64,000 nt of DNA, from contig CAZNEE010000001.1 in assembly GCA_964572255.1 (NCBI GenBank), positions 139,520-203,519 of the forward strand. The letters run 5' to 3'. A program made the position numbers and the translations under genes. The stretch comes from an uncultured Planctomycetia bacterium (GTDB lineage: Bacteria > Omnitrophota > Gorgyraeia > Tantalellales > Tantalellaceae). How positions within the stretch are numbered: the stretch's first letter is position 1; the number at the start of each line of letters is the position of its first letter. Below, one piece after another: positions 8,263-53,508 of this stretch. The notes under the pieces are model-generated. The model was given only the letters and a program-made list of their open reading frames with translations, did not search any database and had not been told where the DNA came from.

Positions 8263-8427
8263 ATGTTGACCAGAATAAAGATCATTATCGCTTCACTCAT
8301 CCTTAGCGTATTTATTTTAAATAATATAGGCTGCGCGGCAGCCTGGTTTCTCGCCGGCGCGGGGACCGCAGCTACAGTAATAGTAGCGTCAGACGAGATC
8401 GACAAGGATGAGGCAAAGAAAAAATAA
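8263..8427 (+). CDS. Small hydrophobic protein (54 aa), signal-peptide/lipoprotein-like
   Basis: MLTRIKIIIASLILSVFILNNIGCAAAW..., with an RBS GGGGGAGGG 5 nt upstream. Absent from the ORF track because it is under 60 aa. Confidence 0.35.
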   Translation: MLTRIKIIIASLILSVFILNNIGCAAAWFLAGAGTAATVIVASDEIDKDEAKKK

Positions 8428-8989: not shown

Positions 8990-9183
8990 TGATGAAAAAA
9001 ATGAATCTTGCGGTAGGTGCGCTTGTTTTAGTGGGATTTTTAATGCTTCAAGTCGGCATTATATTCAGGATGTCGGGGTTTAATATATTAGAACCGATGT
9101 TTGAGATACCGCAGAATTTCTTTATAGCTTCAAATACCTGTTTTCTTATCGCGCTTGTAGTCGATCGTTTCGGCGGTGAATGA
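8986..9183 (+). CDS. Small membrane protein (65 aa)
   Basis: Start overlaps the upstream stop (GATGA); two hydrophobic helices. Confidence 0.4.
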   Translation: MMMKKMNLAVGALVLVGFLMLQVGIIFRMSGFNILEPMFEIPQNFFIASNTCFLIALVVDRFGGE

Positions 9184-22919: not shown

Positions 22920-22945
22920 GGGGACGCCCCACTCGGGGACACCCC
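22920..22945. repeat. GC-rich repeat GGGGACGCCCCACTCGGGGACACCCC, inverted partner of 23289-23314
   Basis: Exact reverse complement of 23289-23314; it sits directly after the metH stop. Confidence 0.7.
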
Positions 22946-23038
22946 GCAGCACAAAAAACATAAAATTTATACAAAAGTCTTGCTTCCTGTTTCATCTAAT
23001 AAAGCGCCAAAAATAGCCGCAGAAAAAGGAGGTTATTA

Positions 23039-23251
23039 ATGGCTGAATGTAAAATCAATGCCAATAAAAAAAACTGCAATTGTTCGTATGAACCTTGTTC
23101 GAAAAAAGGTGTATGCTGTGACTGCCTACAATATCATTTAAAAATGGGGCAGTTTCCCGCATGTTTATTCCCGGATGATGTTGAAAAAACATATGACCGC
23201 AGTATTGAACGATTTATAAAGACTTATCAGGAAAGAGGTTCCTGGTTCTAA
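23039..23251 (+). CDS. Small Cys-rich protein (70 aa, 8 Cys; putative metal-binding)
   Basis: [21 protein letters not shown]...; RBS AAAGGAGG 6 nt upstream; bracketed by the GC-rich inverted repeats. Confidence 0.5.
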
Positions 23252-23288
23252 CTGAAAAGGGCCCCGAATGGGGCGTTTCCAAAGGTGT

Positions 23289-23314
23289 GGGGTGTCCCCG
23301 AGTGGGGCGTCCCC
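23289..23314. repeat. GC-rich repeat (reverse orientation) GGGGTGTCCCCGAGTGGGGCGTCCCC, with an adjacent degenerate copy at 23268-23287
   Basis: Reverse complement of 22920-22945; a tandem ...GGGGCGTTTCCAAAGGTG / GGGGCGTCCCCAAAGGTG arrangement is visible. Confidence 0.7.
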
Positions 23315-25338: not shown

Positions 25339-26241
25339 ATGTGCTACTATTCTTTCAGCAAATATCTTAAAGGGAGATACGGGACTCGTGTTCATCGTCT
25401 AAGCCTGGATGCGGGGTTTACTTGCCCCAATCGGGACGGGACTCTGGATGCTGAGGGATGCATCTATTGCAATGAAAAAGGTTTTTCTCGCTTTGCAGGA
25501 AAAAACCTTTCCTTATATGAGCAGATAGAAAGGTCGATGGCTTTCGCAAGAGAGAGATTTAAAGCAGAGAAATTCATCGCGTATTTTCAGAATGCCAGCG
25601 GAACTTATGCGCCTGTTAAAAAGCTTAAAGAAACTTATGATGTAATTAAGGATTACACTGATATTGTGGGACTTTTCATCTCAACCCGCCCGGATTGTAT
25701 TGATGATGAAAAGCTCGAACTTATCAAAAGCTATAAAGACGATTATGAAGTATGGGTTGAATATGGACTGCAGACTATCCATGACAAGACGCTAAAAGTC
25801 ATAAACCGAAAACATTCATTTGAGCAATCCAGGGAAGCAATAGAAAAAACCGCCGAAAAGGGAATAAAAGTTGCTGTTCATGTCATACTCGGGCTCCCGG
25901 GAGAGTCTGCCGGCGACATGATAGCGACAGCACGCGAAATATCAAAATTACCCGTATCGGGAGTAAAAATACATGTTCTACATGTCCTTAAAGATACAAA
26001 ATTGGAAGAATTGTACAAAGAAGAGAAGATAGGTCTTTTAACCGAGAAACAATATATAAAGGAAGTAAGCGGTTTTTTGGAAAATCTAAGGCCGGATTGT
26101 GTGATCTTCAGGCTTCTTTCAGACGCCGATCCGGATTACCTCATTGTGCCAACCTGGATAAATAGCAAAGCCGCAGTAATAAAGGGTATTAAGGAAGAAT
26201 TACACGCGCGCGGCAGCCGCCAAGGCAAAATTCACCCCTAA
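25339..26241 (+). CDS. Radical SAM protein, TIGR01212-like family
   Basis: N-terminus YYSFSKYLKGRYGTRVHRLSLDAGFTCPNRDG, the Cys motif CPNRDG...CIYC, and a 300-aa length typical of that family. Confidence 0.75.
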   Translation: MCYYSFSKYLKGRYGTRVHRLSLDAGFTCPNRDGTLDAEGCIYCNEKGFSRFAGKNLSLYEQIERSMAFARERFKAEKFIAYFQNASGTYAPVKKLKETYDVIKDYTDIVGLFISTRPDCIDDEKLELIKSYKDDYEVWVEYGLQTIHDKTLKVINRKHSFEQSREAIEKTAEKGIKVAVHVILGLPGESAGDMIATAREISKLPVSGVKIHVLHVLKDTKLEELYKEEKIGLLTEKQYIKEVSGFLENLRPDCVIFRLLSDADPDYLIVPTWINSKAAVIKGIKEELHARGSRQGKIHP

Positions 26242-26269
26242 AAAGTTCGCAAAAACACCCCTGGAATAC

Positions 26270-26298
26270 TTGACAAATAATAGTCTATATGGTATACT
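26270..26298 (+). promoter_or_regulatory. Near-consensus sigma70 promoter (TTGACA-17-TATACT) driving a short non-coding transcript
   Basis: -35 at 26270-26275 and -10 at 26293-26298, exact in the sequence. Confidence 0.5.
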
Positions 26299-26304
26299 TT
26301 AAAT

Positions 26305-26455
26305 GTTAGTAAAGTCAGTTATTTCTTACCAATCGAAAGGGGTGATGCACTCATAAAAATTTCCGAAATTAAAAAATAAGGGACGGTTCTGTACAAGGTA
26401 AAGATTTAAGCAAAAAGGAGGCAAAAATAAGCAGAATTCGTCCCTTATTTTTTAC
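26305..26455 (+). ncRNA. Candidate small RNA (~150 nt) between the promoter and a hairpin + U-tract terminator
   Basis: The 11-bp stem AATAAGGGACG (26375-26385) pairs with CGTCCCTTATT (26439-26449), followed by TTTTTT. No ORF longer than 13 aa lies inside. The class is unknown. Confidence 0.3.
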
Positions 26456-26513
26456 CTCTCCTGCCTGCGCAAAAGCCCGTTAGAAAACTTTCGTTAAAAC
26501 TTAAAAAAGTTAG

Positions 26514-26542
26514 TTGACTTATTCATACCTTTTTGTTATATT
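26514..26542 (+). promoter_or_regulatory. Near-consensus sigma70 promoter (TTGACT-17-TATATT) ending 9 nt before the giant-ORF ATG, implying a leaderless or near-leaderless mRNA
   Basis: -35 at 26514-26519 and -10 at 26537-26542. No Shine-Dalgarno sequence lies between the -10 and the ATG at 26552. Confidence 0.45.
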
Positions 26543-26551
26543 AACTACATC

Positions 26552-29500
26552 ATGAAAAACGTGGGAAAGTTAAAAATAATAAAAGTCATATCTATCATTG
26601 TGCTCATCACATTTTCTTTTCAGAATATTACATGGGCAAATCCTGATATTTTCCAATCTCGCAGTATTGTTGCCGGGCAGCACATGGCCGTAATGGGCTA
26701 TGGGCGCCAGTATGGCTTTAATCTGGCCGCTATGATGTGTTTTGCAAAGATCGGAAATGAATTTTTTGCGAATATCCTCAAAAACGAATTACCTCCGGAT
26801 CATGAAAGATGGGATGAACATCATCAATATCTGGTCAAAGAGGTCAATGAATATATCAATACTTCACCGCACATATTAAGCCAAATAAAAAGGGATGTTA
26901 CCAGGCGCGATATTTCTTTTGACGGGGAAACATTAAAGATCAAGTATAAGAACGTTGAGGGTAAGGAATTTATTGTTTGCCTGGCAAGGGGCGTAAACGA
27001 TAAGCCGGGGCAGTATGAGATAATTAACGGTATCCCGCAGATCGACGGTATTTTGGTGGAGTTCCGGGATCCATTGGATAAAGCTCAGGATACAAGGCAA
27101 GACAAAGTGATCAAAAAAGACGGGGATGCGGTCAAACCTTCAGATGTTTCTGATGAGACAAAAGCCGATAACGAACAGGACCAAAAAAATGATATTGAAG
27201 GAAAAACAGATCTACGCGATGGTTTTACAAGGATCGAACTTCTCAGTGCGGTTGCCGCTGCGGGCTTAATTCTTCCTATTGTAGTCAGTTACCCGACACT
27301 GCTATTACCGATATTAATAGCTTCTATTAGTTCGTTGATTCTCACTTTGGCATATTATTATTCATTTCCTTTATTTAAGGACCTTATCGGAAAAATCTCC
27401 TTGAGAAATCCTTTTATTTTCACCGAGCTTGCCGGTACGGGTATAAAAGTTCCTTCAGGACTGCAGTTGCCGGTACTTTTTGCCGCGCCTGATGACAATA
27501 AGGGTAAAGGCGGAAAAGGGGAGCAAAAGCCGCAGGGCAAAAAGCCAGTTCCTGTCGGAAAGAAAAAGGGCAAAGTGGTAGCAAGACCGGCAAAGAAAAA
27601 AGTGTTTTTAGACAATCGATCTCTTTTAAACACTCTTTTAAGGCATGCGAGGATTTTTAACGTAAAAAATAGAGAACAAGCCGAACAAAAACTTGAAGAG
27701 ATTTTAAGCAGCCTTTCAATGACGATGAAACCGCAGGGAGGAGTTTCTACCAGTGTAAAAGATATAGGAGATGTATTAAGGGATCTCAACGGCCAAGGTA
27801 ATGTATTTTTCCGCGATGTCAAGCATAGATCCACAGCCGGCCATAAGGGAAGATCTTCTTCCAGCAGCCGTACCGGATATAAATATTTTGACCGTTTGGT
27901 CGATAACCGCGTTTTTCAGGACAGGATAAAAAGAACACTCAGTACAGTGAGATTTTACATGGGGAATAATCCCACAATTTTCGGCCAGCCCAGAAGATTG
28001 TCCAGGGTATATTTCGGATCAAGTACCGGATATTTTGATGTGAGGGATAACCTGCAGTATGCTCATGTTGTCGATATTGTTGTTTTAGTTGACGGAAAGT
28101 CGCATATCAAGCCTGTTGCTGATATTCCCAAGACCCGAGAAGAGATCGAAGAGGCTTTTCATGAATTCAGGAATGTCCGGAAAATAAATGTCGAGGTTGT
28201 AGGATTCGATGAACTTGAGGCTGCTGTACAAGGGGACCCAAGCTTGCCTATAGAAAGGATCGAGCATTTGCGCACGCTGCTTATAAAAATTTACAGAGAA
28301 TATGTGCAGATCGCAGGTTCAAGCCTTGTGAAGGAAAATAACGAGGAAATTTTCAGTGAAAGGCTTAAATTGCTCGAGATAGCTTATGTAAACAGACTTG
28401 TCCGGGAGCTTAATGAATTTGCAGGCAAAAAAGAGAAGCTGAGAGAAGCGCATGAAAAAAAAGAAGACGAGAGAGTTCAATTGCCGATTAAGCGCAGAGA
28501 GAATTTAAAGAAAGCAAATGAAGAACTGGGGAGCATTGAAATGCGGATCGAAGAGCTTGAGGTGCAAGCATCTTCATTGTTCGGGACAACTGATCTAACG
28601 GCCATCGATCAGAAAGTTGCGGAAGAGTTGCCTATGTTGTCAGCTAAATGGAATGAGGCCTATATAAGAGAAGGAGGCGAGGGGGGCAAGGCAAGCATTA
28701 AAAATCCGCAGAAACATGTGGAGTATCAACAGATTTATGAGCAATATCAGGAAAAACAGGGATTACTTAACGCTCTAAAAAATCTGCATAAGGAAAAAAT
28801 AGCGATCGAAGAAAAAATAAAAGAAGTCAGGGGCAGTACAAGCGGAAAAGTCGAAGAGATTAATGACCAGTTAAAGCAAATAAGATTGGAAATAGAAGAA
28901 ACAGAAAGGAATTATGAACTTTTGTGTAAACGCATAGAAGACGCGATGTACGGCCAAACGTATATAACGCCGGGAACTGTTATAGGCGGTAAATATCAGA
29001 TAGTCAGTGAACTTGAAAAAGGCGGTTTCGGGATAGTTTATAACGCAAAATATATACCTTCATATGTGGAACAAAGCATTGATGACCGCGAGCGTGAGAG
29101 GATGAGGAATGCGGAATTAGCTATAAAATTCTTTGTCCCGGCGATCGCTCTTTCTGAAAGACAGCGTGAAGTCGCGGAAAAAAGGTTTTTAAATGAAAGG
29201 AAGACTCACAAAGAATTGTCGGAGGACAGCGCGCCTATTCCTATGTTTAGAGACGAAGGAGAGTATGCTGATTTACATTATCTGGTGATGGATAGAGTGC
29301 CTTTAAAAGGAAAAGGAATGACCCTTGATAAGATCATCGCGGAAATAGAGGCCGGACATATTAAGTTAGATTATCGCCAGAAAGTTATTTTATATTGGGC
29401 AATAACTAAAAGGCTCAGAAAATTTCATGGTAAAGGGGGGATCCATAGAGATATTAAGCCGGCACAGTTTATGATACCTATGGCTGAGGATGGATCGCTT

Positions 29501-32500
29501 GTTATCCCGAGTATTGACACACCGGCATTCGACGATTTTGTTGATGAAATTTATCTTCTTGATATGGGAACGGTCAAAAAGGGGAAACAAACAGACGATG
29601 GGGATGCTTTTGTTATGGGGGATCTTTTAGATGTTTCTCAGCAGTTAACCCAGCAGGCAAAATCACTTCCGTTCTCTCCTTCGTATATGTCACCTGAGAC
29701 AGTCGAACTTCTTTATAGCTTTGACGATAGTTCAAAATCAAAGGGCGAAAAAACCATAATAACATTCTCGGATGGGAAAGAGTCCGCTGCGCCAGATGGT
29801 GAAAGCGTCGAGGTTGCCGAGGTCGTCGAGGAAGAGCAATCCCATCAAAAGCCAAAAGTCACCCTTGGTACACCAACTGATATATATTCCTGGGGGGTTT
29901 CAGGTTATGAACTTTTTACAACAGAACTCACAACAAGCGGCGCGAAGAACCCGGTCGCCATAATGGGCGAGGTTTTGAACAATGAGGTGGAGTCTCCGCG
30001 AAGGGTTATTGCAAGATTGAACAGGGCGATGGAACCTAATGCAAAGACACCAAGAGAGGTCTTAGATAAGATTCATGCCAATTTATATAAGATCTTATCA
30101 AGCGAAAAGGATCCTGCCAAGAGGGTTGTCATTAAAAGCAATGACCCGAAGGATGTTGTGTGGGACGAGGTTATTGTGCGGGGGAACGAGGAAAATTTAA
30201 GAGATCGCCTGGAGGATATATTATGGCAAGATGATTCTCTTTTTGATTTGGGTTTAATGAGTTCAGATGAAACCGCAGTCGAATCCATAATAAACAGGCT
30301 TTGCAATAATATTACATATCTTGTTTTCCCGAGAATACCGCAAATGGACGAACACATGGAATTATTGCTTCTTAAATGTCTTGAGAAAGATCCTGAAAAT
30401 CGCCCTTCAGTAAAAGTCTTGGATGACGAGATAGATAAGTTGCTTCATAACAGGCAAGAGGCCATGATCTATCAGCCGGCAGGCGAAGCAAGCTGGGGCA
30501 CCCGTTTTGGTAAGTGGGTCGAACGTAATGCAAAATTAGCTTTAACGTTAGCCGGTGTGATCATACTTACTCTGGTTACTGCAGTGGTGGGTTTAGTGGT
30601 TTATTTTGATCAAAAAACCACCACGTTGAACGAAGCTGCCGAAAAAGCGGAAGCCGCGAGAACAAGAGCCGAAAGACAAACGAGAGAAGCCGAGACGGCG
30701 CAAAAAACACTTGCAGAGGAAAAGGACAAGCTTACTCAGGAGAAGGAAAAATTCGAAAAAGAAGTTGAAAGGAAGAACGAGGAATTGGCCGATAAAGAAA
30801 AACTGTTAGCCGCGAAGGATATTGAGATCAGGAAAAAGAGGGAAGAATTGTTAAAAATGCAGAAAGAGCTGGACGCAAAGACCAAACAGGTGGAAGAGGT
30901 AGCGAAGCAGCTGGCGGAGTTTGAAAAGAAAAAAGGTATTTACGCCAAGGACATCGATAATCTGACGGAAAAAAAAGGAAGCCTTCAGGAATCCATGAAA
31001 GAGATGACCCTGGCGATGAAGAAACTTGAAGAGGATAAGAAGCGGCTTCTTATCGATAAAAAGAACCTTGAGGAAGAGAAGAAAAAACTCGAAGAGGAAA
31101 AAGAAGTTCTCGCAAGGAAGTTCAAAGAGCTCAGCGAAAGCGTCCCGGGCATTTTTGAGGAGGCTAAAAAGCTGGCAAGAAATTATGAAGACGAAGAAGC
31201 TTTCGAAGCTTTAGCTAATCTGCCGCATTGGGGCATTGACAACGAAGAGAGCCTCGCGAAATTAACCCTCGGTTTTGACGAAGTGTTCAAGATATTCGTG
31301 GACAACGGACAATTCAATGAGGCTGTAAAGTTGGAAGAAGTCAGAAGGGATCTTTTCAGATTCGGCTTCAGTAAACTGGAGACGGAAGCATCAAAGAAGA
31401 CCTTTGAAAGCGAGATCAATGCGGTAAAAGCCATGTTGGCGGCGGGGTATCATGATAAAGCCATGAGCCAGACCGTCAACCTGATGGAAAAAACAATATA
31501 TAAAAATTCCAAAGAATGGATGGAGATATTAAAGGGTCTGTTCGCGGGAATAGTGATCGAGCATGCATATTATGAAAAGGATGCCCAGAAAAGAACCGAC
31601 AGGATAAACAGCGCGAAGGCCCTGATAGATGAGACCGGCAGCGAGGATGAAAGATATTTCCGTTTTGCCGGCTTTTATATGGTCTCAGGGGATTACGCAG
31701 CAGCGGCCAAATACTATAAAAGGTATTGTGACCACTGGGCGGAACAGGCTAAAGAAAAAGACATAGCCGAAGACGTTAAGAAAAACAGGCTCGAAAAAGC
31801 TTCATATGGCTTGATCTCGAGTGCCGTGGCCCATCTAAAAAGAGCGGAGGCCGCAAAGAGCAAAGATAAAAAGGAAGTAGCTGAATATGCGATGAAAATA
31901 CTCCAGGAGTGGGAGAAATCCTATACCGAACAAAAAGAGCACTTGGCATGGGCCAATTTCGTAAAAGGCGAATTGTACGTACTGATGAAAGAACGGGACA
32001 AGGCCGAGGAAGCCTATAATGGGTCCCTTAAACTTGCGAATGAAAATGGCCTGAAAGTTATTATCGCTTTATGTGAAGCGAGATTGGGGCAAGAGGTCAA
32101 GTTCAGCGATCTGTTAAATACGTGGACGACTTTTATTTCAAGCGAAGTGCCCCTGCCTTTTAGGGCGGAAATAAGAAGTATCTTGAGAAGCGCGACAACA
32201 AAATACCGGTCCGAACTTCAAAAAGCCAAACGTGAAGCCGAGGAAGAAAAAAGGAAGAAAGAGGAAGAGGAGCGGAGAAAAAAAGAAGCAGAGGAAAAGA
32301 TCCAGGGCAAACTTCTTGAGGATATAAAATGGCCGAAAGAGATCGATATCAAACTCATTCAGATAAATAAGGGGATACAGACTCTTACTCGCAATAAAGG
32401 GTTCGGAGATAAGCAGCAGAGGAATGATGCTGAAAAACAGCTTGCCAAGCTTATGGAAGAAAAAGAAAAACTGGAAGCGAAAAAAGCTAAATATTTAACG

Positions 32501-33280
32501 CAAGAACCACTCAAAGCATCAACGGGCGGACCGATGGCAGTAGTTTTCAGTTTAAACATTTTGTTAGGAGTTGTGACAAGTCTTGCGAAAAGCTTATCTA
32601 GTAAATTTCCAAAACTTTCTGGATATAGCGAAGAAGATAAGGGTAAAGGGTTGATATTATTTGCCGATGATATGATATATGCTGATAAAGAAGTGGATTA
32701 TTCTGCTGTATTTGATCTGGATAAACTTGCAAAAACTATAGGGGAAGAAGGTTCTTCTTTGATCGGTAAGATAGTAATTTATGCGGAAAATATCAATAAG
32801 GCAAAAATACTGGAGACAATTATAAAAACAGCCAATAAAAATGCTGTCGTGGAAATAGTAACAAGCGATAAGCTTGTGGCGAGCAATAATGGAGATTGCC
32901 GAGAATCGACAATTAAAGACTTATTAGAGTATTGCAGACATCCGAAGAACGGCATTGGGTTCAAAAGTCATAAAGATGTGCTCGGCATAATACGCGGGCG
33001 TCTTTCGGAGAAAGAAAAACAAAAATTGGAAATAGAATACAGAAGCACTGCTCATAAGATACCGCCCATAGTTGAATTTGTAGAGATAAAAAAGGGAAAC
33101 GTTTATTCGATTATGGAAGCTGTAAATATACTTATTAACCAGCTTGATCCGGAAAAGAGACAAGATGTCAGCTCTTTAGTTATACTTGCGCTCAAACCGA
33201 TAGTAAAAATGTCTGAAACCTTACAGGAAGAATATAATAAATATATCCATCAGGTCATGGCTCTCGAAAGCGCCGCGTAA
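26552..33280 (+). CDS. Giant (2242 aa) multidomain membrane protein with an embedded Ser/Thr protein kinase-like domain, long coiled-coils, a TPR-like helical region and a Lys-rich segment
   Basis: Uninterrupted 6.7-kb ORF. Hanks motifs are present: GxGxxG (EKGGFGIVY), AIK (ELAIKFF), catalytic loop HRDIKPAQ, a DFG variant (LLDMGTV), an APE-like SPE (YMSPE) and DIYSWGVSG. There are hydrophobic segments at residues 1-28, 225-275 and 1330-1352, and heptad-rich stretches such as KEKEKFEKEVERKNEELADKEKLL... Confidence 0.8.
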   Translation: MKNVGKLKIIKVISIIVLITFSFQNITWANPDIFQSRSIVAGQHMAVMGYGRQYGFNLAAMMCFAKIGNEFFANILKNELPPDHERWDEHHQYLVKEVNEYINTSPHILSQIKRDVTRRDISFDGETLKIKYKNVEGKEFIVCLARGVNDKPGQYEIINGIPQIDGILVEFRDPLDKAQDTRQDKVIKKDGDAVKPSDVSDETKADNEQDQKNDIEGKTDLRDGFTRIELLSAVAAAGLILPIVVSYPTLLLPILIASISSLILTLAYYYSFPLFKDLIGKISLRNPFIFTELAGTGIKVPSGLQLPVLFAAPDDNKGKGGKGEQKPQGKKPVPVGKKKGKVVARPAKKKVFLDNRSLLNTLLRHARIFNVKNREQAEQKLEEILSSLSMTMKPQGGVSTSVKDIGDVLRDLNGQGNVFFRDVKHRSTAGHKGRSSSSSRTGYKYFDRLVDNRVFQDRIKRTLSTVRFYMGNNPTIFGQPRRLSRVYFGSSTGYFDVRDNLQYAHVVDIVVLVDGKSHIKPVADIPKTREEIEEAFHEFRNVRKINVEVVGFDELEAAVQGDPSLPIERIEHLRTLLIKIYREYVQIAGSSLVKENNEEIFSERLKLLEIAYVNRLVRELNEFAGKKEKLREAHEKKEDERVQLPIKRRENLKKANEELGSIEMRIEELEVQASSLFGTTDLTAIDQKVAEELPMLSAKWNEAYIREGGEGGKASIKNPQKHVEYQQIYEQYQEKQGLLNALKNLHKEKIAIEEKIKEVRGSTSGKVEEINDQLKQIRLEIEETERNYELLCKRIEDAMYGQTYITPGTVIGGKYQIVSELEKGGFGIVYNAKYIPSYVEQSIDDRERERMRNAELAIKFFVPAIALSERQREVAEKRFLNERKTHKELSEDSAPIPMFRDEGEYADLHYLVMDRVPLKGKGMTLDKIIAEIEAGHIKLDYRQKVILYWAITKRLRKFHGKGGIHRDIKPAQFMIPMAEDGSLVIPSIDTPAFDDFVDEIYLLDMGTVKKGKQTDDGDAFVMGDLLDVSQQLTQQAKSLPFSPSYMSPETVELLYSFDDSSKSKGEKTIITFSDGKESAAPDGESVEVAEVVEEEQSHQKPKVTLGTPTDIYSWGVSGYELFTTELTTSGAKNPVAIMGEVLNNEVESPRRVIARLNRAMEPNAKTPREVLDKIHANLYKILSSEKDPAKRVVIKSNDPKDVVWDEVIVRGNEENLRDRLEDILWQDDSLFDLGLMSSDETAVESIINRLCNNITYLVFPRIPQMDEHMELLLLKCLEKDPENRPSVKVLDDEIDKLLHNRQEAMIYQPAGEASWGTRFGKWVERNAKLALTLAGVIILTLVTAVVGLVVYFDQKTTTLNEAAEKAEAARTRAERQTREAETAQKTLAEEKDKLTQEKEKFEKEVERKNEELADKEKLLAAKDIEIRKKREELLKMQKELDAKTKQVEEVAKQLAEFEKKKGIYAKDIDNLTEKKGSLQESMKEMTLAMKKLEEDKKRLLIDKKNLEEEKKKLEEEKEVLARKFKELSESVPGIFEEAKKLARNYEDEEAFEALANLPHWGIDNEESLAKLTLGFDEVFKIFVDNGQFNEAVKLEEVRRDLFRFGFSKLETEASKKTFESEINAVKAMLAAGYHDKAMSQTVNLMEKTIYKNSKEWMEILKGLFAGIVIEHAYYEKDAQKRTDRINSAKALIDETGSEDERYFRFAGFYMVSGDYAAAAKYYKRYCDHWAEQAKEKDIAEDVKKNRLEKASYGLISSAVAHLKRAEAAKSKDKKEVAEYAMKILQEWEKSYTEQKEHLAWANFVKGELYVLMKERDKAEEAYNGSLKLANENGLKVIIALCEARLGQEVKFSDLLNTWTTFISSEVPLPFRAEIRSILRSATTKYRSELQKAKREAEEEKRKKEEEERRKKEAEEKIQGKLLEDIKWPKEIDIKLIQINKGIQTLTRNKGFGDKQQRNDAEKQLAKLMEEKEKLEAKKAKYLTQEPLKASTGGPMAVVFSLNILLGVVTSLAKSLSSKFPKLSGYSEEDKGKGLILFADDMIYADKEVDYSAVFDLDKLAKTIGEEGSSLIGKIVIYAENINKAKILETIIKTANKNAVVEIVTSDKLVASNNGDCRESTIKDLLEYCRHPKNGIGFKSHKDVLGIIRGRLSEKEKQKLEIEYRSTAHKIPPIVEFVEIKKGNVYSIMEAVNILINQLDPEKRQDVSSLVILALKPIVKMSETLQEEYNKYIHQVMALESAA

Positions 33281-33798: not shown

Positions 33799-33876
33799 TT
33801 TTGTATAAATTTATAAGGGAGTAAAGAATACCGAAAAAAGTACTTTACTCCCTTTTTCTATTGAAGGATAGTTTAA

Positions 33877-40309: not shown

Positions 40310-40351
40310 GGTTAAGATATTTCTTGACGGCATATTATATATAAGTATGAT

Positions 40352-43300
40352 ATGGAAGCTATGAAGGATAAACTGCACGTAGCATTCTTATGGCACATGC
40401 ACCAACCCTTGTATAAGGATTATCTTACAGGGAAGTATCATCTCCCCTGGGTAAGACTCCATGCCACGTATTCATACCTGGATATGATCTCCATACTCGA
40501 CAGGTTCCCGGATATCAAAGCCACTTTCAACTTAACCCCATCCCTGATCTGGCAGTTATTGGATATCTCTGAAAATAAAGATGTTGATGATATTTTTCTT
40601 AAGCTTACGGAAAAAGACGCGGATGATCTGACCGTTGAAGACAAATGCTTTATTCTGAAAAACTTCTTCTCCTGCGATCTTAAGAAGGCGATATTCCCAA
40701 TTCCGAAATATAAAGAGCTTTTTCTTAAAAGAGGCGACGATCTTAGCGAAGCAGCCTTAAAAAGCAAGATAAGGGATTTTAAGACAGAAGATTTCAGGGA
40801 TTTGCAGGTTCTTTTTAATCTTGTTTGGTGCGGGTTCACTTTGAGGGAAAAGGATCATTTGGTTAAAGGATTGTTCCACAAGGGGAAAAATTTCACTGAA
40901 GATGAAAAACGCTCTCTCATCAAGAAACAGCAGGAAGCCGTAAGCTCGATCATTCCTTCTTACAAAAAACTCCAGGATAAGGGGCAAATAGAAATATCCA
41001 CTTCACCCTTTTACCATCCCATCCTTCCGCTTCTATGTAAAGACAAGTCAGGAAAAGGATATGATTTTCGCGAGGACGCCAAGATCCAGGTAACCAGAGC
41101 GATCGAACTTTATGAAAAGGTTTTCGGGAGGAAACCAAAAGGTTTCTGGCCCCCGGAAGGGAGCGTAAGCCAGAGAATAATACCCCTTCTGGCGGATGAA
41201 GGCATCGAGTGGATCGCTACTGACGAAGGGATCGTGCTTGAATCATTTAAAGGCGAAGATATTCTCAGAGAAGAGCTTATATATAAGGCTTTTACCGCTG
41301 AAGAAGACGGCAGAGAGATAAGCATGGTCTTCAGGGACATTAATATATCCAACGCGATAAGTTTTAGATATGCGAATATGCCGGCAAAAAAAGCCTGTGA
41401 GGACATCATCGAGGATATTAAAGCTATTAAAAGGGGAAGGGAGTTTCATGACGGGGATCATTTAGTCTCTATCATATTGGATGGCGAGAACCCTTGGCCG
41501 TATTTTGAAGACGGAGGAAAAACTTTCCTTTCGGAAACTTACAGGCATCTTTCTTCCATGAAAGATATTGAGACCGTGACCATCGGCGATTATTTAAGCT
41601 CTACCGGCGAGAGAAAAAAAATAAAAAAACTCCACAGCGGTTCCTGGATAGACAGGAATTTCAATAAATGGATCGGGTCCCCGCAGAAGAACAAGGCGTG
41701 GGAATATTTAGAGAGAGTAAGAGAAGATCTTTTTAATTTCGAACACCCGAGCGAAAAAGCTCTGGAGGAACTTTATATAGCGGAGGGAAGCGATTGGTTC
41801 TGGTGGTATGATGATTTTGGAAGCGAAATAAATTTTGTGTTCGAAGAATTGTACAGGTTACATCTGTCCAATATCTACAGGATCATGGGAAGAAAAGTTC
41901 CCTATTACCTGACCGAGCCCATACCGGCGGGTCCGTCCGCTCAGAAAGTCCCCGAGGTGATAACTCCCGGAGAAATGGCCAGTTATCCCAAAGTTTTGAT
42001 CGTTTCATCGGAAGCTATACCTTTTGCGAAAACAGGCGGCCTTGCTGATGTCGCCGGCAGTCTGCCCAAATCCCTGGTTTCGCTTGGCTGTGATGTAAGA
42101 GTGATCATGCCGCTTTATAGAAGTGTAACGAGCGGGAACTTTCCGTTAACCAGAGAAGCGCGCAATATTAGGCACCCTCTTTTGGGCGGAGTGAGAGCGT
42201 TCAGACTATATTCAAATCGCTCAGGAGGCGTCACTACTTATTTTGTAAGAAGAAGAAAATATTTTTCAAGAGAAGGATTATACGGCACCGAGAGAGGCGA
42301 TTATCCCGATAACGGCATAAGGTTCAGTTTTTTCTCAAAGGCTTCTCTTGCCGCGATCAAAGCTATAGACTTTAAACCGGATATCATACATTGCAACGAT
42401 TGGCAAAGCGCGCTTATTCCTTTCTATCTGAAGTTCAGGTTGGGTGAAGATGATTTTTACCGGGGGATAAAGACCCTGTTCACAATACACAATATAGCCT
42501 ATCAGGGCGTTTTTAATAAAAGGATCATGAAAAAAGCGGGCATCCCCGAGGCTTTTTTCAACATGAATGATCTTGAATTTTACGGCAAGATAAATTTCAT
42601 GAAATCGGGAGTATTATACTCGGATGCTATAAGCACCGTAAGTCACCGTTATGCCGAAGAGATAATGACGGAAGAATATGGCTATAATCTTGACGGGCTT
42701 TTACGGTCAAAAAAGGACAGCCTTTACGGCATACCAAACGGCGTGGATTATTCGATATGGAGCCCGAAGAATGATAAATACATAAAAGCGAATTATGACC
42801 GGGCGACGATCGACAAGAAGAAGGAATGCAAGAAAGATCTTCTGGAATATACAAAACTTCCGCTTTCCGAGGATACGCCGTTACTTGGATGTGTTACGAG
42901 ACTGGCGGAACAAAAAGGCATGGACCTGTTCGCGAACATTATGAATAAAGTCATAAAACTGGGAGCGGGTGTTATAATACTCGGGAAGGGCAGTAATTAT
43001 TATAACAATCTCTTCAAAGACCTGGTCAGGCAGTATCCAAGGAACATTTACGTTTGCAATGATTTTAACGATCCCTTGGCGCATAAGATCGAAGCTGGGT
43101 GTGACATGTTCATCATGCCTTCAAGATATGAACCTTGCGGTTTGAACCAGATGTACAGCATAAAATACGGTACACCTCCGGTTGTAAGGGCAACAGGGGG
43201 TTTGGATGATGTGATAATAGATTTTGATGAAAACGGGGAAAAGGGCAACGGGTTTAAGTTCGGTCCCGCTAAGGGGGATGCTCTTTTCTCGGCGATAAAA

Positions 43301-45585: not shown

Positions 45586-45615
45586 TTGACATGTATTATA
45601 TCGTAGAGGTATAAT
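45586..45615 (+). promoter_or_regulatory. Putative sigma70 promoter (TTGACA-18-TATAAT) upstream of the DUF4912-glgB genes
   Basis: -35 at 45586-45591 and -10 at 45610-45615. Confidence 0.4.
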
Positions 45616-50821: not shown

Positions 50822-50962
50822 ATGAAGAAGTACAGATGTCTTGTTTGCGAATGGGTTTACGATCCTGCCGAGAATAATAATGTTGATTTTAACGATCTTC
50901 CGGAAGACTGGGTTTGTCCGGAATGCGGTGCGGGAAAAGATCAGTTTGTACCTGTAGAATAA
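50822..50962 (+). CDS. Rubredoxin (46 aa)
   Basis: [19 protein letters not shown]...[17 protein letters not shown], i.e. two CxxCG knuckles, with RBS AAAGGGG. Not in the ORF track because it is under 60 aa. Confidence 0.8.
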
Positions 50963-50986
50963 GCGAGAAACTGAAGGAGGATCATA

Positions 50987-51394
50987 ATGACTAAATTAAG
51001 AGAACTATATCGGTGTAACGTATGCGGAAATGTTGTTGAGATAACACATGAAGGGGCACCGTCTCTAGTCTGCTGTAATGAGCCAATGCAAAAGCTGGAA
51101 GCAAAAACGCAGGATGAAGGCCTTGAGAAACATGTTCCGGTTATCGAAAGAATGGATACCTCTCCCACAGGATGCGACTGTAAGGAATGCGGCGTGAAAG
51201 TAAAGGTCGGAAGCGTAGAACATCCGATGGAAGAAAAACATTTCATTAAATTTATAGAGGTTCTGACAAAGGACCAGGTGCTAAGAGCGGAACTTAAACC
51301 GGGGATGAAACCTGAAGCCGCTTTTTGCGTGAAGGAAGAGGATATAGTTGGAGTAAGAGAGTTTTGCAATATTCATATGCTTTGGAAGAAATAA
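50987..51394 (+). CDS. dfx: Desulfoferrodoxin (2Fe superoxide reductase)
   Basis: Desulforedoxin-like centre I (YRCNVCGNVVEI...LVCCNEPM) plus the SOR domain (EKHVPVIER...). Strong RBS GAAGGAGG. Confidence 0.9.
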   Translation: MTKLRELYRCNVCGNVVEITHEGAPSLVCCNEPMQKLEAKTQDEGLEKHVPVIERMDTSPTGCDCKECGVKVKVGSVEHPMEEKHFIKFIEVLTKDQVLRAELKPGMKPEAAFCVKEEDIVGVREFCNIHMLWKK

Positions 51395-52588: not shown

Positions 52589-53089
52589 ATGGGGAAAAGT
52601 TTTTCGGGTTGTGAGATCATCGAGATCGCGATCCAGATAGAGAAGAACGGGATAGATTTTTACAACGGGTTGATCGAAATGTCCAAGCATGATAAAGCCA
52701 AGGAAGTCTTTAAGTATTTGGCCCAGCAGGAAGAAGAGCATATAAGGATCTTTAAGGGAATTTTTGACCCAAAATGCTCATATGAGCCTCAAGGCGCTTA
52801 TCCGGACGAATATTTCGCGTACATGAACGCTCTTGCCAGCGGCTATATCTTCACTAAAGAGAATAAAGGTAAAGAGATCGCCTCCGGAGTAAAAAACGAT
52901 AAAGAAGCGATCGATCTTGGGATCAAGTTTGAAAAAGAGTCTATACTTTTTTATGAAGGGATGAGAAAGATCGTTCCTGATAAGGATCAGCAGCTGCTTG
53001 AGAGAGTTATCAATGAGGAAAAGGAACATCTTAAAAAACTATGCGAACTAAAAGGGGACGTGCCAGTCGGGGACACCCCATGTGCTTGA
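52589..53089 (+). CDS. Ferritin-like diiron protein (rubrerythrin-family, no rubredoxin domain)
   Basis: Two EExH-containing helices (QQEEEHIRIF, NEEKEHLKKL). The C-terminal residues are encoded by the GC-rich repeat. Confidence 0.6.
   Translation: MGKSFSGCEIIEIAIQIEKNGIDFYNGLIEMSKHDKAKEVFKYLAQQEEEHIRIFKGIFDPKCSYEPQGAYPDEYFAYMNALASGYIFTKENKGKEIASGVKNDKEAIDLGIKFEKESILFYEGMRKIVPDKDQQLLERVINEEKEHLKKLCELKGDVPVGDTPCA
53054..53079. repeat. GC-rich repeat GGGGACGTGCCAGTCGGGGACACCCC
   Basis: Same family as 22920-22945; it overlaps the 3' end of the ferritin-like gene. Confidence 0.7.
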
Positions 53090-53143: not shown

Positions 53144-53386
53144 ATGAGCAAAAAAGTTTTTATATACAGTACTCCGACATGTCCGTTCTGCAGGAAGACA
53201 AAACAATTCCTACAGGACAATAATATTGAATTTACTGATTATGATGTATCCAGTGACCATGCAAAAGCTGAAGAAATGGTGCAGAAGTCTGGGCAGATGG
53301 GAGTGCCCGTTCTCGATATAGAAGGCGAGATCGTAGTTGGTTTTGATAAGGAAAAAATAGAAAAATTGTTAGATCTTTACGCTTAG
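53144..53386 (+). CDS. Glutaredoxin-like protein (CPFC active site)
   Basis: VFIYSTPTCPFCRKTKQFL...GVPVL..; 80 aa. Confidence 0.8.
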   Translation: MSKKVFIYSTPTCPFCRKTKQFLQDNNIEFTDYDVSSDHAKAEEMVQKSGQMGVPVLDIEGEIVVGFDKEKIEKLLDLYA

Positions 53387-53412
53387 GGGACGTGCCATGG
53401 GGGGGACACCCC
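53386..53412. repeat. GC-rich repeat GGGGACGTGCCATGGGGGGGACACCCC (overlaps the grx stop codon)
   Basis: Same repeat family; it forms an inverted pair with 53483-53508. Confidence 0.7.
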
Positions 53413-53482: not shown

Positions 53483-53508
53483 GGGGTGTGCCCCCATGGC
53501 ACGTCCCC
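53483..53508. repeat. GC-rich repeat (reverse orientation) GGGGTGTGCCCCCATGGCACGTCCCC
   Basis: Its reverse complement matches the 53386-53412 copy; about 70 bp of AT-rich spacer lies between them. Confidence 0.7.

Follow-up and report, generated by a model that had tools for sequence, protein, structure and literature searches.

Two promoter-like sites ahead of a large kinase-like gene of Omnitrophota: a probable near-leaderless start and a species-specific terminator-like segment

Introduction

In the stretch of DNA analyzed here (64,000 nt, called the window throughout), a spacer of 310 bp lies between a radical-SAM gene and an ORF of 2242 aa, and two near-consensus sigma70 promoters had been noticed in it. 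The first, P1, was proposed to produce a non-coding RNA of about 150 nt, and the second, P2, to end so close to the ATG of the large ORF that the mRNA would be leaderless or nearly so. The locus thus raises the question of which promoter serves the large gene, how translation of this gene could be initiated, and what the remainder of the spacer contributes.

Omnitrophota are uncultivated, and to our knowledge nothing has been measured on how transcription or translation starts in these bacteria. Leaderless mRNAs and orphan intergenic RNAs are well-known kinds; in the PRM transcript of the phage lambda cI gene, for example, the −10 box lies against the AUG start codon and there is no Shine-Dalgarno (SD) sequence. 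In the literature on Omnitrophota, the only mention of leaderless initiation that we found is a speculative remark on a giant gene without a detectable SD sequence (bioRxiv 10.64898/2026.06.04.730025). The present locus resembles that case in the phylum, in the great length of the gene and in the missing SD sequence, but no recognizable sigma70 promoter was present there, whereas here a near-consensus promoter is found in six lineages; the gene of 2242 codons is also far smaller than the giants described in that study. The present case is better defined than the earlier remark and is still computational.

Results and discussion

The locus and its neighborhood

The two genes that flank the spacer are:

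25339–26241, plus strand: radical-SAM gene of the TIGR01212 family (Pfam families on record; homologues), used as the synteny anchor
26552–33280, plus strand: ORF of 2242 aa with a protein kinase domain at residues 853–1051, hydrophobic segments and coiled coils

The radical-SAM gene is the last member of a metH/DUF6485/mnmG/radical-SAM run. The large ORF begins with a signal-peptide-like segment that ends in a conserved ANPD(I/L)F motif, and its predicted product is a large, kinase-like, membrane-associated protein. The relatives of the radical-SAM protein come almost exclusively from Omnitrophota genome bins, the nearest with identities of 60–73%, and the window matches contigs from hypersaline-sediment metagenomes, one of which is 527 kb long; this genome occurs in hypersaline sediment of the Salton Sea type (JGI 3300018080 and 3300017963, ENA ERZ27256770, SRR6963311). 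The spacer is identical in six contigs of this species from different samples, so that there is neither polymorphism nor covariation to analyze within the species.

About 50 consecutive genes of the window are encoded on the plus strand, with a single minus-strand ORF at 50941–51369; a search for tRNA and tmRNA found none. An SD core precedes 23 of the 49 window genes, compared with a background motif rate of 18%, and is missing from the other 26. Thus, SD sequences are used in this organism, yet their absence is common, and the lack of an SD sequence ahead of any one gene is weak evidence when taken alone.

Two strong promoter-like sites in one spacer

The two promoters and the elements around the second one are:

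26270–26298, plus strand: P1, TTGACA (26270–26275), 17 nt, TGgTATACT with the −10 TATACT (26293–26298), from the promoter scan
26493–26513, plus strand: A-rich box GTTAnnnnTAAAAnAG upstream of P2, from the invariant columns of the six-lineage alignment
26514–26542, plus strand: P2, TTGACT (26514–26519), 17 nt, TGtTATATT with the −10 TATATT (26537–26542), from the promoter scan and the six-lineage alignment
26543–26551, plus strand: interval of 9 nt from the −10 to the ATG, invariant in length and variable in sequence across six lineages

P1 matches the sigma70 consensus at 11 of 12 positions and carries the TG of an extended −10 at 26290–26291; for P2, the corresponding values are 10 of 12 and 26534–26535. 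They are the two best promoter-like sites between 25500 and 27500, and in a scan of the whole 64-kb window they are the only ones that combine at least 10 of 12 consensus positions with an extended −10 TG. Both were located correctly by the initial annotation: P1 is the near-consensus TTGACA-17-TATACT that had been described, and 9 nt lie between the end of P2 and the ATG at 26552. Ordinary leaders and SD sequences follow other intergenic sigma70 promoters of the window, such as the perfect TTGACA-18-TATAAT at 45586, and the presence of such good promoters elsewhere indicates that the sigma70 consensus applies to this organism.

P2 is kept at a fixed distance from the ATG in six lineages

Orthologous starts of the large gene, located downstream of the radical-SAM gene, were taken from five further lineages, in which the neighboring radical-SAM proteins are 60–73% identical to that of the window:

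L024: radical-SAM protein 60% identical; ATG at 2870
L168: 73% identical, the closest relative; ATG at 1583
L169: 66% identical; true ATG at 9026, where the gene caller had chosen a later GTG
L170/L171: 66% identical
L172/L173: 65% identical; protein of 3023 aa with a kinase domain

When the sequences were aligned on the ATG, all six lineages, including that of the window, showed the same arrangement: TTGAC[A/T], a spacer of 16–17 nt, TGnTATAnT, exactly 9 nt, and ATG. TTGAC, TG and TATAnT are invariant, and the variable base of the −10 is A, T or C. The 9-nt interval never changes its length, although distantly related pairs share only 3–5 of its nine bases, and indels do occur elsewhere in the region, where the promoter spacer has 16 or 17 nt and the A-rich box lies 0–11 nt from the −35. 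At the seventh position after the −10 (26549 in the window), every lineage has an A. P2 is thus a sigma70-type promoter with an extended −10 that is kept at orthologous positions in six lineages, and the alignment supports its reading as a conserved housekeeping-type promoter of the large gene.

The A-rich box abuts the −35 in the window, whereas in the five relatives another 9–11 bp, close to one helical turn, lie between the two; a face-specific protein-binding site or an UP-like element would be compatible with such a placement.

The start codon itself is well pinned. It is an ATG in all six lineages, in-frame stop codons are present five codons upstream of it in L170 and L172, and the signal-like N-terminal peptide with the ANPD(I/L)F motif is conserved from this ATG onward. 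None of the motifs GGAG, GAGG and AGGA occurs upstream of the ATG in any of the six lineages. The first 50 nt of the mRNA are weakly structured throughout (−1.9 kcal/mol in the window), at odds with the earlier description of the message as highly structured.

A metagenome scan with the alignment of the window and L024 confirmed no locus. In genome and metagenome scans with the radical-SAM protein, none of the matches listed exceeded 65% identity, and one of them (L024) was a syntenic locus.

The large gene is a presence/absence cassette

Among relatives of 60–73% identity, the kinase-like gene of 6.7 kb is present in the five other lineages and absent from the same site in at least seven contigs. 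In L167, L175, L176, L177, L178 and two JGI contigs, the radical-SAM gene is directly followed by the Gly-zipper and histidine-kinase genes that, in the window, are located downstream of the large gene. The large gene is therefore a presence/absence cassette that, where present, carries P2.

This distribution bears on the possibility that P2 is not a working promoter at all. The large gene would then be expressed from upstream transcripts with a long, AU-rich leader devoid of an SD sequence and by S1-dependent initiation, and the conserved motifs would represent a protein-binding site or a translational enhancer. About half of the window genes lack an SD sequence, the orthologous spacers of the relatives contain neither significant structure nor an obvious terminator ahead of the large gene, and the first T of the −10 stands 15 nt from the ATG, further than in classical leaderless genes, all of which would be compatible with such a scheme. 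However, the invariant positions are exactly those of a sigma70 promoter (TTGAC, 16–17 nt, TG, TATAnT), the gene brings P2 along as part of the cassette, and, in the species of the window, a strong hairpin with a T-tract separates the gene from upstream transcription. We regard this alternative as improbable.

Predicted leader of the large-gene mRNA

With P2 taken as the promoter of the large gene, the distance between its −10 and the ATG can be compared with published values. In in-silico work, leaderless genes are recognized by a TANNNT box that precedes the start codon by about 12 bp, and the second base of this box lies between −14 and −8 relative to the transcription start site (PMC3160421). 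Counted from the ATG, the first T of the P2 −10 stands at −15 and the second base, an A, at −14; counted from the invariant A at 26549, this second base stands at −11. The most likely transcription start is this invariant A. The mRNA would then begin with AUC-AUG, and this 3-nt leader is more likely than a leader of zero length; a true 5′-AUG start is possible, lying at the edge of the published range and needing an unusually long discriminator of 9 nt. The leader length is predicted from the geometry between the −10 and the ATG.

Altogether, the mRNA of the large gene probably has an SD-less leader of 0–3 nt, and its translation would need SD-independent, 5′-end-dependent initiation of the leaderless type. 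The initial proposal that P2 yields a leaderless or nearly leaderless message without an SD sequence was strengthened by the comparison, in which the same promoter geometry was found at the same ATG in six lineages.

The arrangement shares with the leaderless mRNAs of Actinobacteria and Deinococcus-Thermus a −10 placed against the start codon, the lack of an SD sequence, the AUG and a TANNNT box close to the translation start (PMC3160421). It differs from classical leaderless genes in that the first T of the −10 precedes the ATG by 15 nt instead of about 12 nt, predicting the 3-nt leader, as well as in the full −35 and the extended −10; in addition, the arrangement looks gene-specific. In E. 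coli, true leaderless mRNAs are translated better than mRNAs whose leader is short but not absent. The fixed promoter-to-ATG geometry in six divergent lineages represents a concrete, testable case of leaderless-type expression in Omnitrophota, and the rule TGnTATAnT, 9 nt, ATG can be used to screen the long Omnitrophota genes that have been reported to lack ribosome-binding sites.

Among the strong promoters in 376 kb of Omnitrophota DNA, few other genes had a spacing of 10–13 nt to the ATG. TTGACA-16-TATAAT is followed after 10 nt by the ATG of a 391-aa ORF in L028 (minus strand, −35 at 95), and TTGACA-18-TATAAT is followed after 13 nt by the ATG of a 167-aa ORF in L017/L093 (plus strand, −35 at 8338). 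Within the window, a GH57-like gene of 1030 aa is preceded, within 40324–40363, by TTGACG, 16 nt, TATGAT, 9 nt and a second in-frame ATG at 40361 (MKDKLHVAFLWHMHQP...). This spacing from the −10 to the ATG equals that of the large gene, so that the start annotated at 40352 is possibly incorrect and this gene, too, may be leaderless.

P1 lies in a species-specific segment

The distal part of the spacer differs from the P2 region in its distribution. Its features are:

26242–26471, plus strand: segment of about 230 bp that holds P1, the hairpin and the T-tract (alignment; blastn and pattern search)
26303–26454, plus strand: transcript of about 150 nt predicted to start from P1, provided that the hairpin terminates it; a candidate orphan RNA, deduced from promoter and hairpin
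26370–26454, plus strand: long hairpin with arms 26370–26392 and 26431–26454 and loop 26393–26430 (folding compared with shuffled sequences)
26415–26421, plus strand: SD-like AAGGAGG in the hairpin loop, read from the sequence

The orthologous spacers have lengths of only 79–126 bp, and their alignment to the window begins no earlier than about 26472. A comparison of the orthologous intergenic regions had been suggested earlier; it revealed that the P1–hairpin segment is missing from all five syntenic relatives, and no counterpart of P1 is found at the orthologous positions in any of them. The distal segment is thus a species-specific insertion.

Neither blastn nor a mismatch-tolerant pattern search found other copies of the segment in the 64-kb window or in about 1 Mb of related loci. 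An imperfect direct repeat of 11–13 nt, recognized by eye, flanks the segment (CGCAAAAACACCCC at 26249 and CGCAAAAGCCCG at 26468; CGCAAAA..CCC), and no inverted repeats are found at the segment ends. A MITE or repeated palindromic element would be expected to have several genomic copies, terminal inverted repeats and a target-site duplication. An exact 17-mer match to a viral contig is located within a coding region without an inverted repeat and was rejected as a chance match, and a second pattern retrieved nothing. Readings of the segment as an attC or other recombination site or as a retron were discarded because no matching end motifs or partner genes were found nearby.

A long hairpin followed by a T-tract

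The stem described initially, an 11-bp core followed by a T6 tract, is real, but the pairing extends further, to 23 bp with one bulge. Consequently, the loop that had been given as 53 nt comprises 38 nt (26393–26430) upon refolding. The folding energy of the hairpin is −26.8 kcal/mol (z = −6.1), and none of 200 shuffled sequences folded as well.

The GC-rich core GGGACGG/CGTCCC is located directly before UUAUUUUUU, with T6 at 26448–26453, as is typical of Rho-independent terminators. The loops of such terminators usually have 3–8 nt, compared with 38 nt here; this loop size is the reason why a strict terminator scan made no call, and by the usual definition the hairpin, which does have a stem and a U-tract, falls outside the class of intrinsic terminators. 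It resembles an intrinsic terminator with an unusually large loop and may still act in a terminator-like manner, and the upstream A-tract could make it bidirectional. Hairpins with T-runs are also present at other gene ends of the window, some with fairly large loops (33815–33854 and 63883–63916).

The purine-rich loop does contain the AAGGAGG reported earlier, one base away from the position given then. None of ATG, GTG and TTG occurs 5–12 nt after it.

The candidate RNA downstream of P1

The view that P1 drives a small non-coding RNA stood only in part. The anatomy, with a strong promoter, a significant hairpin and a U-tract, would allow a species-specific transcript of about 150 nt, but conservation, an Rfam match, further copies and a target signal were all lacking. 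Rfam searches at the gathering threshold across the whole window and with permissive settings across 26200–26620, the kind of search that had been recommended for the region, gave only noise, with E-values of at least 1.7 and matches to eukaryotic or viral families. The 5′ part, the loop and the full length of the RNA were also tested for complementarity to 50 local translation starts; shuffled RNAs reached energies as good as the best of these pairings, and the 5′ end of the large gene was among the weakest targets. Of the features expected of a trans-acting small RNA, the segment has a promoter and a terminator-like hairpin; conservation in relatives and membership in a described family are lacking. 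The first predicted hairpin of the transcript (26313–26351) is no better than chance (z = +0.4).

In contrast to the earlier statement that no ORF longer than 13 aa follows P1, an ATG ORF of 17 codons is present at 26303–26356 (MLVKSVISYQSKGVMHS). Only 4 nt lie between the −10 of P1 and this ATG, so that the ORF is probably not fully transcribed; for it to be leaderless, the transcription start would have to lie at an unusually short distance from the −10. A small-protein reading of the segment was rejected, as this is the sole ORF and no start codon is suitably spaced from the SD-like motif.

Type I 3′UTR-derived sRNAs such as DapZ and MicL have their own promoter and share the terminator of the upstream mRNA. 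The P1 RNA resembles them in a promoter just past the stop codon and ahead of the only terminator-like hairpin, in its length of about 150 nt and in its end at a U-tract. It differs in that no conservation, chaperone context, seed or target was found and in the 38-nt loop of its terminator. We assign an independent function of the P1 RNA roughly one chance in three, and the candidate matters only if it is expressed.

One specific version of such a function is that the RNA is a new, species-specific regulator, the loop acting as a decoy for 30S subunits or for a CsrA/Hfq-type regulator. Above its long stem, the loop displays a consensus SD sequence together with ARN repeats and a GUACAAGG motif. 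If true, this decoy could alter how SD-dependent and leaderless translation are balanced and thereby benefit the adjacent leaderless gene; we consider it very improbable.

In another scheme, P1 would drive a regulatory 5′ leader, that is, a riboswitch or attenuator in which conditional read-through of the hairpin controls the large gene. P1, the hairpin and the gene do stand in the expected order. However, the orthologous genes are predicted to be of the leaderless type, with P2 kept against the ATG, no Rfam family was matched, nothing upstream of the hairpin is structured significantly enough to be a sensor, and a read-through mRNA would have no SD sequence near the ATG. This scheme is hardly credible. 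The same findings disfavor the suggestion in the initial annotation that the RNA could act in cis on the downstream gene, which is unlikely because the orthologues work without such a leader and a read-through transcript has no SD sequence near the ATG. Read-through from P1 would place the ATG about 250 nt from the 5′ end, which makes P1 an unlikely promoter of the large gene.

A proposed spacer of two parts with different ages

The best explanation of these observations is that the spacer consists of two parts that would differ in evolutionary age, an ancestral core with P2 and a species-specific insertion with a terminator or an orphan RNA. We assign this model a probability of about 60%. 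According to the model, the proximal 60 bp or so (26493–26551) would represent the ancestral core promoter of the large kinase-like gene, at which an RNA polymerase with a housekeeping sigma70-type factor would initiate at the invariant A, which lies three bases ahead of the ATG, or, less probably, at the ATG itself. The distal part, found only in this species, would have added P1 and, about 70 nt later, the 23-bp hairpin with its U-tract. Most likely this hairpin would act as a terminator that stops the upstream metH-to-radical-SAM transcript before P2, and it would also halt transcription from P1 short of P2, probably releasing an orphan RNA of about 150 nt as a consequence. The hairpin may thus shield P2 from upstream read-through, yield the orphan RNA, or both. 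A role as terminator or insulator is sensible since a read-through transcript, with the ATG far from its 5′ end and no SD sequence nearby, would be useless for the large gene.

The P1–hairpin segment could also be inert inserted DNA, left by a degraded small gene or a one-off insertion, in which case its promoter-like and terminator-like features would produce no stable or functional RNA and only P2 would matter. Its absence from every relative, including L168 with 73% identity, the lack of an Rfam match, the insignificant first hairpin, target complementarity that does not rise above shuffled controls and the imperfect flanking direct repeat are all in line with inert DNA, and so is the ATA that follows AAGGAGG instead of an ATG and could be a dead start codon. 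On the other hand, the occurrence within 200 bp of a promoter with 11 of 12 consensus positions, an extended −10, a hairpin with z = −6.1 and a T6 tract is very unlikely to be due to chance and argues for active DNA, and six contigs from different samples carry the segment unchanged, a uniformity that low diversity may also explain. Inert DNA is a tentative alternative, unlikely on balance but to be taken seriously; the two-part model with a terminator or an orphan RNA in the distal segment is preferred.

Another repeat in the window

Elsewhere in the window, a G-rich repeat, GGGGACGnnCCAnnnGGGGACACCCC, occurs in at least five copies (22920–22948, 23286–23314, 53054–53080, 53386–53412 and 53483–53508) and matched no Rfam family. 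Inverted pairs of this repeat bracket two small genes, the 70-aa DUF6485 ORF (23039–23251) and a glutaredoxin-like ORF (about 53145–53385); the repeat could be a REP-like element or a marker of small-gene cassettes.
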